Assembly (NCBI GenBank): GCA_021773195.1
Contig: JAJFKN010000020.1
Span: forward strand, 7,570-71,569
Length of the DNA stretch: 64,000 bases
Origin: Gammaproteobacteria bacterium
GTDB taxonomy: Bacteria; Pseudomonadota; Gammaproteobacteria; JAKBBU01
Direction of reading: 5' to 3'
The notes below the pieces were generated by a model. It was not told the origin of the DNA, made no database searches, and was given only the letters and a program-made list of their open reading frames with translations. Each line of letters opens with the position of its first letter. Position 1 is the stretch's first letter. A program made the translations under genes and the position numbers. Below are positions 39,984 through 41,759 of this stretch, one piece after another.

Positions 39984-40025
39984 GGTTTTGGTCAACTGTA
40001 ATTTAGTGTAGTGCACGGAATTTCA
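39984..40025. repeat. 42-bp direct repeat, copy A (GGTTTTGGTCAACTGTAATTTAGTGTAGTGCACGGAATTTCA), flanking the AbiE cassette
   Basis: 37/42 identical to copy B at 41714-41759. Contains the abiEii stop codon. Confidence 0.7.
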
Positions 40026-40808
40026 TGGTAGCCTTCTGATAACGTTTTCAATAACAAAGTGATAGGCTTTTTCATAATCCCAGTCTTGGTGCTGTGGCAG
40101 CAAAAAATCCATATCCAACTGGAAGTCTTGATTGTCTTTTTTTTGTTCCAAGTTTTTAATAAATTCATCACGTGAAATAGTAATGTTATCATTTGCACAA
40201 TACTTAAAAAATATATCTATTATTCGATCGATGTTAATAAGCTCTTGACTGACCACATACCATAAATCGAATAAATCACGACCTTTGCGGCGTTGGTAAA
40301 GAGCACGAAGCTTAGTTGCCATTAGCTCATCAATCTCATAGGTAGAAATGTCTGCTGCTCCATGAAACCACTCAGATTTAACATCAAATTTTTCGGTTTT
40401 TAGTGGGAGCACTTGAAAATGTTCAGTGGTATTAATTTCTAATTTTAATTTGGATGGTAATTTATTTATGGCTTCATACTTATAAACTAGTTTGGCACTT
40501 CTTTGTGTGATTTTCCATTTTGGTTCACCAAGCCAAGATTCAAGAACGTTTCTTATTGCATCTATTGTTTGTCCTATAGGGGCAGCATTTTTTTGGACAA
40601 AATCAATATCCTCACTGTATCTAGCAGGTGGTTTTAAAAATAATTTGTTTAATGCAGTGCCTCCGCGAAAAACCAGGTTATTTTTAATATGTTCGTTATT
40701 ATATAAAGCGACCAATGCTCTGGATATAATTAGATCTTGCTCTATCTGGGCAAGTGTCTGCCAACCGAATGAGTTTCTCCACTGTTCAATGTATATCTCT
40801 GGTATCAT
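40023..40808 (-). CDS. AbiEii/DUF1814 nucleotidyltransferase toxin (type IV TA), second copy
   Basis: FRGGTALNKLF and RYSEDIDF motifs. Overlaps upstream abiEi by 4 bp. Confidence 0.7.
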   Translation of the reverse strand: MIPEIYIEQWRNSFGWQTLAQIEQDLIISRALVALYNNEHIKNNLVFRGGTALNKLFLKPPARYSEDIDFVQKNAAPIGQTIDAIRNVLESWLGEPKWKITQRSAKLVYKYEAINKLPSKLKLEINTTEHFQVLPLKTEKFDVKSEWFHGAADISTYEIDELMATKLRALYQRRKGRDLFDLWYVVSQELINIDRIIDIFFKYCANDNITISRDEFIKNLEQKKDNQDFQLDMDFLLPQHQDWDYEKAYHFVIENVIRRLP

Positions 40809-41677
40809 AAGTCGCTCTCTATTTCTGTATTAATGATTATTCGCCACTTTTTACATCTTGGAAAATGCGCTTTAGGTGTTTTAGATGATAGTGGCAAGTA
40901 CTTGGGTTTATTTTTCGATACATAGTCAGCTAATGTTCTAACAAACTGATTGGCTAATGCTTCGTCCATTAACTCAATATTATCTATGATATAGCCTATT
41001 CTCTGCAGTTGATATACAGTGCCCGTGTCGCAAGCAAGTTTTATGAGTTTATCGGCATCGAGGTTTTCTATAAGTTCAGAAAAAACAGTGACAATATTAT
41101 TTAATCCACCACAGCGGTGAGTATACTCTAGTAAATCCAACGCTACTAACTCAGGTGCAGCAACTTTCAGATAACCTGTACTAACAGTAAAATCTTGCGT
41201 GGGTAAATTGGATAAATCGTTCTTTTTTATAACTTCAATTTTAATCTGTCCAAATTCCCAAGGGTGGCGGATTCTAGCATTGGTAATCACTTGGAACTTA
41301 AATATTTTTTGGTGAGCGGCGCCATAAAAACCAGCTGCACTCAATAAAGCAACATAATACTCAGCGTTTAGGTGATTCATTACAATGGGAATAAGTTCCT
41401 CTGCAGGAATGCAGCCATGGAGCTTATGTTCTGGTGGTACAATGACGTACAAGCCTTTCAGTGGCGAAATCAATTCGCCTTGATCCTTGATACGATAAAT
41501 GGCGTTCAGGGCAGCGTTCTTGGAGAGGCCCATATCAGCCATTAACTTCGTTAATGTAAAGTGTCGCCCACCATACTGCCTAATTTGTTTAATATAATCA
41601 GATAGTCTCATAATTACCTCTAAATCACGTTTTTCGTGATATAAGGGTATTGTAGAGTATAATATTGAAAAGTTCAA
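40805..41677 (-). CDS. AbiEi-family antitoxin/regulator, second copy
   Basis: N-terminal wHTH (DYIKQIRQYGGRHFTLTKLMADMGLSKNAALNAIYRIKDQGELISPLKGLYV). Confidence 0.65.
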   Translation of the reverse strand: MNFSILYSTIPLYHEKRDLEVIMRLSDYIKQIRQYGGRHFTLTKLMADMGLSKNAALNAIYRIKDQGELISPLKGLYVIVPPEHKLHGCIPAEELIPIVMNHLNAEYYVALLSAAGFYGAAHQKIFKFQVITNARIRHPWEFGQIKIEVIKKNDLSNLPTQDFTVSTGYLKVAAPELVALDLLEYTHRCGGLNNIVTVFSELIENLDADKLIKLACDTGTVYQLQRIGYIIDNIELMDEALANQFVRTLADYVSKNKPKYLPLSSKTPKAHFPRCKKWRIIINTEIESDL

Positions 41678-41713
41678 AGGCTGTAATGGCTAAGAGGCCA
41701 ATAGAATGAGTTT

Positions 41714-41759
41714 GGTTTTGATCAGCTGTAATTTAGTGTGGTGCACTGAATTACAGCTG
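41714..41759. repeat. 42-bp direct repeat, copy B, with intact hairpin CAGCTGTAATT-N15-AATTACAGCTG
   Basis: 11-bp perfect inverted arms at 41723-41733 and 41749-41759. Copy A has a degraded right arm. Confidence 0.7.

Follow-up and report, generated by a model that had tools for sequence, protein, structure and literature searches.

An AbiE toxin–antitoxin cassette between 42-bp direct repeats at a host palindrome, compared with insertions showing long target duplication

The direct repeats found around restriction-modification units have been divided into three classes by Furuta, Abe and Kobayashi 2010 (PMC2853133): those produced by site-specific recombination, those left by insertion with long target duplication, and those between which a unit was inserted by chance. 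For the second class, that study follows Nobusato et al. 2000 (Gene 259:99), which, in the part drawn on here, deals with insertion with long target duplication for restriction-modification units. The members of this class are complete addiction units of less than 20 kb, devoid of mobility genes and forming inserts of deviant GC content, and their repeats exceed 30 bp, are otherwise unique in sequence and often overlap the 3' ends of genes (PMC2853133). The H. influenzae examples are low-GC inserts between unique repeats of 46 bp (44/46 identity) that overlap the 3' ends of genes (PMC2853133). The authors tied the process to DNA breakage by the restriction enzyme (PMC2853133), and a later review mentions it for restriction-modification systems only (PMC3874152). 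A full-text literature search of incomplete coverage found no report of long target duplication for toxin–antitoxin systems. Here, a similar arrangement is described around an AbiEi/AbiEii pair in a 64,000-nucleotide stretch of gammaproteobacterial DNA (assembly GCA_021773195.1, contig JAJFKN010000020.1, positions 7,570 to 71,569 of the forward strand). The whole stretch is called the window, and coordinates refer to it unless they carry the L number of a related locus. With a probability of roughly 0.55, the AbiE cassette is an insertion with long target duplication at a palindrome of the host.

The cassette is bracketed by two 42-bp sequences in direct orientation, to which strand does not apply. 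Copy A lies at 39984-40025 (GGTTTTGGTCAACTGTAATTTAGTGTAGTGCACGGAATTTCA), and copy B at 41714-41755 (GGTTTTGATCAGCTGTAATTTAGTGTGGTGCACTGAATTACA), with four further bases completing a hairpin that extends to 41759. The starts of the copies are 1730 bp apart, and 37/42 positions are identical. An earlier sequence-only reading of the window had reported these near-identical flanks, and its coordinates and sequences proved exact. A chance origin of the match is excluded. When the comparison of upstream with downstream sequence was slid along the window on both strands, it scored 27 and 25 at the cassette and at most 14 elsewhere. The 46-mer matches only itself when up to 3 mismatches are allowed, and 0/100 shuffles gave a match. 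No third copy of the 42-mer (GGTTTTGRTCARCTGTAATTTAGTGTRGTGCAC) occurs on either strand of the window at up to 14 mismatches, apart from the palindromic self-match of copy B, and an exact-pattern scan with its core returned 0 matches in a 185,579-species genome set, the JGI metagenomes and IMG/VR. The repeat is thus unique within the window and absent from the public collections searched. It is also missing from all 169 fetched loci; its absence from homologous loci implies that the repeat belongs to the host locus and is not borne by the element. In agreement with the sequence-only reading, the first AbiE pair of the window (9536-11318) has no flanking repeat, its best score of 11 being background.

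The locus shares with the long-target-duplication class a complete addiction-type unit, the lack of a mobility gene, a small size (1,688 bp), a low GC content and repeats of more than 30 bp (42 bp). It differs in its cargo, which is an AbiE pair without a known nuclease instead of a restriction-modification unit, and in its target, a palindrome that was cut within the right arm. The published cases were, moreover, proven by empty sites in sister genomes, whereas no empty site was found here. Both the repeat and the arrangement had seemed novel at first sight; the repeat sequence did not turn up in any collection searched, but the arrangement has a published counterpart among restriction-modification units (PMC2853133).

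The 1,688 bp between the repeats hold only a promoter, abiEi and abiEii, so the initial impression of a cassette with just two toxin–antitoxin genes was accurate. The abiEii gene (40023-40808, minus strand) encodes a predicted nucleotidyltransferase toxin of 261 aa, which matches Pfam PF08843 (DUF1814 nucleotidyltransferase family, 2.3e-39) and PADLOC AbiEii PDLC02294 (1.1e-103, residues 1-260 of 260). The predicted antitoxin and regulator of 268 aa is encoded by abiEi (40805-41611, minus strand), with matches to Pfam PF09407 (3.3e-30) and PADLOC AbiEi (3.8e-79, residues 1-267). The two genes overlap by 4 nt (40805-40808). The pair had previously been placed at 40023-41677; both gene calls are upheld by Pfam and PADLOC, but the TTG at 41677 is only the start of the longest open reading frame (ORF). 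The start codon is most likely the ATG at 41611, which gives 268 aa, because the homologues are 267-268 aa long. The 5' region of the cassette (41612-41713, minus strand) contains a palindrome and promoter-like hexamers, and no homologue was detectable for its outermost 52 nt (41662-41713). The palindrome, ATCACGTTTTTCGTGAT at 41624-41640, is kept in homologous cassettes, with related versions visible in L001 and L061, and is a probable AbiEi operator. A promoter scan placed a -10 hexamer, TACAAT, at 41649-41654 and a -35 hexamer, TTGAAC, at 41672-41677. Full-length profile matches, the 4-nt gene overlap and the operator-like palindrome upstream are all shared with AbiE type IV systems. There is no difference in the genes, and only the genomic context is noteworthy. 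Once inserted, the cassette would act as an ordinary AbiE type IV toxin–antitoxin and abortive-infection pair. It is only distantly related to the first pair of the window (26% and 20% identity). Directly upstream of the first abiEi, an inverted repeat with 28-nt arms (11318-11376, 86% complementary, 3-nt spacer) is probably the autoregulatory operator of that operon.

Several observations show that the cargo is foreign. Its GC content is 36%, against 43-48% in the flanks. Homologues of AbiEii with 66-87% identity occur in about 80 species, and their hosts among the species-representative genomes include Legionellales, Coxiellaceae, Francisellaceae, Rickettsiales, Holosporales, Midichloriaceae, Chlamydiae, Caedibacter, Berkiella and others. 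By comparison, the nearest non-self relative of the ApaH protein encoded next to the cassette is 58% identical among 5.8 billion proteins. The AbiE cassette is a module common to intracellular and amoeba-associated bacteria, and it reached this genome by horizontal acquisition. No AbiEii homologue of at least 60% identity was found in the PLSDB plasmids or in a phage collection. DNA homology to about 60 related cassettes ends at 41641-41661 on the upstream side and at 40019-40036 on the side of the abiEii stop codon. These limits lie at the operon edges, which identifies the acquired unit as the operon with its own promoter. Copy A abuts the abiEii stop codon, and copy B lies 52 nt past the last detectable homology. 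The idea of a discrete insertion, already put forward in the sequence-only reading, is borne out by the low GC content, by homology limits close to the repeats, and by the spread of the cassette family across unrelated intracellular lineages, set against at most 58% identity for ApaH. In related genomes, a second AbiE-like pair or fragments of AbiEii often adjoin the homologous cassette (L092:1253-1449 and 3255-3451, L003:3770-5269, and the P0126 contig), which suggests repeated insertion or replacement at the same spots.

The two copies of the repeat are not equivalent. Copy B contains an inverted repeat with 16-nt arms (41723-41738 and 41744-41759), one T.G position, a 5-nt loop and no bulged bases. 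A perfect 11-bp inverted repeat had been described there before; the inverted repeat is real, but its stem is longer. As single-stranded DNA, copy B folds with -14.3 kcal/mol (z = -5.8), a value reached by 0/200 shuffles, while copy A, with -2.5 kcal/mol (z = +0.3), folds no better than random sequence. The identity block comprises 9 bp to the left of the palindrome and the hairpin without its last 4 bp; in copy A, cassette sequence takes the place of these final right-arm bases. The TCA at 40023-40025, the final three bases of copy A, is the abiEii stop codon. A decayed right arm of copy A that contains this codon had been proposed from the outset, and both the codon and the inability of copy A to fold were confirmed. 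At the two right-arm positions that differ between the copies, copy B pairs with the left-arm base common to both, and copy A is unpaired. Since copy B keeps the pairing at both positions, copy A is the derived, decaying copy, and all five differences between the copies are compatible with drift of the truncated copy A. The loops differ as well (TAGTG vs TGGTG). Copy B retains the ancestral palindrome, which is probably under constraint. Neither strand has a T-run after the copy B hairpin, and the hairpin thus does not qualify as a canonical intrinsic terminator. We infer that this hairpin is the original intergenic palindrome of the host.

The sequences on either side belong to the host. The core gene apaH (39157-39954, plus strand; NCBIfam equivalogs NF001204, 1.8e-108, and TIGR00668; Pfam Metallophos) is convergent with the cassette, and its stop codon lies 29 bp before copy A. 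Beyond copy B, GC-rich nested palindromic repeats fill 41760-41877 (strand not applicable). They belong to dispersed families that also occur at about 20386-20426 and at 5891-5922; because they recur elsewhere in the window, they are ordinary intergenic DNA of the host, lie outside the insertion and mark the host side of the junction. The repeat CCCCGGAATTTTTCG...GAAGAAAAATGTCCGGGG at 41790-41851 has, relative to the copy at 20386-20426, a small palindrome CCTGTCCCCTGAGGGGAAG in its loop, an arrangement that looks like nested miniature elements. The next ORF (41878-43005, minus strand) encodes 375 aa with internal repeats and has no Pfam or NCBIfam match. In the uninterrupted region, this gene and apaH would have converged on the palindrome from opposite sides.

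Insertion with long target duplication would then have proceeded as follows. A compact AbiE module, consisting of promoter and operator, abiEi and abiEii, would have been acquired horizontally and would have landed at the pre-existing palindrome in the convergent intergenic region between apaH and the 375-aa gene. After the event, 42 bp of the target would have flanked the insert on either side, with no recombinase or transposase gene in the cargo. Copy B, beside the far-side host DNA, would have kept the full hairpin. In copy A, the junction would have removed the end of the stem, and substitutions that break the pairing would have followed. Before the event, the junction would have read host flank CCTATCATAGTG, one repeat (copy B) and host flank CGCGAAGG. 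Two molecular routes are the simplest. A circularised or tandem cassette that included a little of the same chromosomal sequence could have entered by a Campbell-type single crossover, or a replication template switch or the fill-in of a staggered break could have taken place at the stalled hairpin. The addictive nature of the AbiE pair would favour its retention. We infer both the molecular route and the single-copy state of the 42-mer before the event.

Some homologous cassettes of other genomes show the same architecture. For about 110 related loci, the sequence preceding abiEi was compared with the sequence following abiEii. Unique, locus-specific repeats with exactly two copies per locus bracket the AbiE pairs in L061 (109 bp, 93% identity), L114 (166 bp, 96% identity), L140 (98 bp, 96% identity) and L151 (about 52 bp with one 2-nt indel). 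Each of these repeats duplicates the 3' end of a co-oriented upstream host gene, and the cargo ends 5-36 nt past the abiEii stop codon in L061, L114 and L140. Like the locus in the window, these four appear to match the long-target-duplication class of PMC2853133. Repeats scoring at least 17 were found at 8/110 cassette positions and at 5/291 control positions shifted by 2.6 or 3.5 kb (Fisher p = 0.009). Two apparent matches were discarded, one at the L043 control, which is a run of N, and one at L093, which is a product of overlapping search windows. The differences in the coding parts of the L061, L114 and L140 repeats comprise 10 synonymous and 7 non-synonymous changes, a ratio that is non-random vs 26% (p = 0.004). 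This ratio also fits a pair of one selected and one decaying copy (p = 0.09 vs 40%), so that it does not discriminate between duplication in situ and a copy derived from a donor. A hairpin as a general feature of such sites was rejected, as the flanking repeats of L061, L012, L064 and L020 fold no better than shuffles. Since the sibling repeats tested lack hairpins, the hairpin is a property of the target in the window and not a requirement.

Several points weigh against a long target duplication in the window. If only unique repeats are counted, the enrichment is 6/110 vs 5/291 and no longer significant (p = 0.08). No empty site was found that would display the single-copy ancestry of the 42-mer. 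For the 42-mer core, there was no match in genomes, metagenomes or viral contigs, nor any close relative of the organism in the collections searched. The nearest ApaH relatives, from Legionellaceae, have 54-58% identity and a different gene order, and therefore offer no usable empty site; the region downstream of apaH is variable there too. The copies differ by 12%, which requires an old event or a diverged donor copy. The mechanism is unproven even for restriction-modification systems (PMC2853133). In addition, the palindrome has the geometry of a simple recombinase core site, with inverted arms and a short spacer. The copy count covers 64 kb only, which leaves room for a low-copy dispersed family, and the flanking repeats of L064/L143, L020 and L152 belong to dispersed families with extra copies nearby.

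The sibling loci with dispersed repeats also speak for an explanation without any duplication, equivalent to the third class of Furuta and colleagues. According to this, the hairpin would be one member of a host repeat family, dispersed in low copy number or locally tandem and similar to repetitive extragenic palindromic sequences, and the cassette would have come to lie between two pre-existing copies. Other dispersed palindromic repeats are plentiful between the genes of the window, which would suit such an origin. The dispersed families, though, show 2-6 copies within 6-64 kb, and the 42-mer lacks a third copy on either strand of the window as well as any match in the genome, metagenome and viral collections. 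The 42-mer is also AT-rich, unlike the GC-rich repeat families of this genome. Copy A, finally, stops precisely where the cassette begins and lacks 4 bp of a complete stem, as the product of a junction would and an independent repeat unit would not. An insertion between pre-existing repeats is therefore considered quite improbable.

The remaining alternatives to a long target duplication involve a dedicated recombination system. CIME-type elements, Xer-dependent IMEX and pdif modules carry small cargo, often toxin–antitoxin genes, between direct copies of a recombination site with inverted arms, and the recombinase acts in trans. By analogy, the palindrome in the window could be a lox- or dif-like core, at which a circle with a matching site entered as a non-autonomous element of the CIME or IMEX type, leaving copy A as a hybrid attL and copy B as a hybrid attR. 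The direct repeats at both ends of a compact insert agree with this, as does the geometry of copy B, whose arms of 14-16 bp around a centre of 5-7 nt resemble a simple tyrosine-recombinase site. The same AbiE family is, furthermore, found elsewhere on an att-type element, namely at the tRNA-Ser genes of L012, L133 and L106 and in about 38 loci with a nearly invariant, tRNA-mimicking end module.

All ORFs of at least 120 aa in the window were scanned against Pfam, and none encodes a tyrosine or serine recombinase, a DDE or HUH transposase, TnpA/TnpB or IntI; no integrase was found between the repeats or anywhere else in the window. The only match of a recombination or mobility type is an Rpn/YhgA-like PD-(D/E)XK "Transposase_31" gene (35773-36684, plus strand), 3.3 kb from the cassette. 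In E. coli, Rpn proteins promote recombination independently of RecA. No dif-like site was detected at the junctions, where at most 14/28 positions agreed with the dif site of E. coli or the pdif site of Acinetobacter, a level taken as background without a shuffle control. The asymmetric identity block, which runs 9 bp past the left arm and stops 4 bp short on the right, is unlike the outcome of exchange in a central spacer, and the two loops differ. Copy B, which this model makes a hybrid of two sites, is nevertheless a near-perfect palindrome. The 42-mer is found on none of the homologous cassettes, and both the end module of the tRNA-Ser type and a tRNA gene are missing from the window. Rfam gave no family in the window or around the related loci, with the exception of tRNA-Ser in the latter. 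Small cargo between direct repeats with inverted arms is thus shared with CIME, IMEX and pdif elements, but here a dif-like sequence, a recombinase and a tRNA target are lacking, the identity block is asymmetric, and the site is not found on related cassettes. A recombinase acting in trans is accordingly rated as unlikely, if still deserving attention.

The tRNA-Ser-associated cassettes form a group of AbiE mini-islets. Their repeats measure 54/54 in L012 (L012:3583-5891), 63 bp in L133 (L133:3918-5922) and 20 bp in L106 (L106:2762-5999), and each ends in the last 8 nt of the adjacent tRNA-Ser. The repeats (20-63 bp) thus consist of these last 8 tRNA nucleotides and host-specific downstream sequence. 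No integrase lies between them. A search for the empty site of L012 through its flanking gene gave two contigs, both with the insert. L012 (3629-3800) and about 38 other loci (e.g. L077:3775-3946, L014:3631-3802, L016:47-218) share a non-coding module of about 170 nt, located 0.95-2.0 kb upstream of abiEii. It has 88-97% identity in about 25 loci and is weaker in the rest, with about 75-80% over roughly 60 nt. Its hosts are Legionella, Coxiellaceae, Rickettsia, Pedobacter and alphaproteobacterial metagenome-assembled genomes, and it is more conserved than the AbiE proteins. The first 58 nt are nearly invariant (TGGCGGAGGTTGGCATTCTTTAAAATAACCACCTCCAAACTGGGTGGGGAATGTCAAC), and on the opposite strand the module ends in an acceptor-stem-like minihelix followed by GCCA, mimicking the 3' end of tRNA-Ser. 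No Rfam family matches the module, nor is there covariation, the sequences being too conserved. The module is probably an att-type end of an island that targets tRNA-Ser. A link to the tRNA-Ser-directed activity of toxins of the AbiEii/MenT type is speculative. In L111 (1206-3251), near a tRNA-Ser gene, two copies of the module separated by about 2 kb suggest that cassettes are arrayed in tandem.

Toxin–antitoxin cassettes are common in chromosomal integrons, and the bracketing of a small cassette by direct repeats that contain a hairpin could recall an attC-type site, which an integron integrase recombines in the form of folded single-stranded DNA. A toxin–antitoxin cassette between similar hairpin-forming direct repeats is indeed also seen with integron attC sites, as in cassettes flanked by the Vibrio cholerae repeat (VCR) in Vibrio superintegrons. 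Core sites, bulged bases, intI, an array and promoterless cassettes, which characterise those systems, are all absent here. On the plus strand, neither GTTRRRY nor RYYYAAC occurs within 39960-40060 or 41690-41790, and inspection of the reverse strand likewise showed no such core. The stem is free of extrahelical bases and has a single T.G position, copy A is unable to fold, and a single cassette has its own promoter in a window without IntI or another tyrosine recombinase. The integron reading was rejected on these grounds and is scarcely credible.

In elements of the IS200/IS605 type, similar hairpins in the same orientation lie close to either end, and insertion produces no short target duplication. 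A non-autonomous member of this group, or another HUH element, with similar subterminal hairpins and a TnpA encoded elsewhere, could accordingly look much like the locus in the window. Only copy B folds, however, no ORF of the window resembles TnpA or TnpB, the hairpin has no further copy in the window or in public collections, and the homologous cassettes are without such ends. This origin is highly improbable, and even taken together, an integron-like and an IS200/IS605-like system have very little probability.

Insertion sequences of the IS1634/IS1549 type generate long, variable target duplications of tens to hundreds of base pairs, and they encode a DDE transposase and have terminal inverted repeats. 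The long duplication is shared with the present locus; the transposase and the terminal inverted repeats are absent here. A search for terminal inverted repeats at the cargo ends scored 9.0, against a shuffle maximum of 10.0, and the duplication of 42 bp is not of the short, fixed-length type seen with DDE transposons and miniature inverted-repeat transposable elements. A Mycoplasma transposon with long target duplication is alluded to in PMC2853133. Three mechanisms had been offered in the sequence-only reading, and of these the duplicated target hairpin fits best. The attC alternative failed in every feature tested, and attL/attR-like sites are left without a recombinase and with a 42-mer that occurs on no related cassette.

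Other features of the window concern defence genes, repeats and possible effectors. About 3.6 kb from the AbiE cassette, an ATPase with AAA_14 and DUF4143 domains (45347-46657, minus strand) matches the PADLOC candidate defence family PDC-S01 (3.8e-112). It is flanked (45239-45329 and 46741-46769) by a palindrome with 37-nt arms on one side and by a copy of a dispersed repeat on the other, and a homologue also adjoins apaH in the contig of the nearest relative. Together with the AbiE pair, this ATPase may form a small defence islet. The dispersed repeat, TGGATTCCCGCCTTCGCGGGAATGACGTT, is present at 3522-3550, 46741-46769 and 20582-20610, and it fits the ATTCCC-N8-GGGAAT pattern of dRS3-type repeats of Neisseria. 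Beside one of its copies, a tandem array of about 6 units of 21 bp (GGAATGACGTTAGTGAGTACA) occupies 3519-3677. Similar repeats, of the GGGAATGAC type, also occur in several related loci (L020, L042, L152). Two intergenic sequences of 133 nt (7362-7494 and 48442-48574) form an inverted repeat pair with 82% complementarity and arms 41 kb apart. The window also encodes a thaumatin-domain protein (4379-5722, minus strand), a Fic-domain protein (23522-24856, plus strand) and large ORFs without a family match (13834-15390, 20896-22182 and 43084-45021). The thaumatin and Fic proteins and the orphan ORFs fit an effector-rich, intracellular, Legionellales-like organism.

How toxin–antitoxin and other small defence modules enter "ordinary" chromosomal positions without a visible vehicle is poorly understood. 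The window and the four sibling loci in other intracellular bacteria add probable AbiE examples to the long-target-duplication class. A broader and more doubtful proposal is that AbiE cassettes in general are minimal mobile units, which enter chromosomes with variable target duplications of about 42-166 bp and no recombinase in cis, by the route proposed for restriction-modification units. If so, a route taken by AbiE, which has no nuclease, would be uncoupled from DNA breakage by a restriction enzyme and would represent a general mechanism of addiction modules, for example circle formation with Campbell-type re-insertion or template switching at stalled forks. The palindrome would then have served as a preferred break or stall point in this window. 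For annotation, a hairpin-containing direct repeat around a small cassette need not mean an integron or a new recombination system. If the insertions are confirmed with empty sites, the restriction endonuclease would be dispensable for long target duplication, and the loci would offer natural junctions, about 42-166 bp long, for working out the mechanism.

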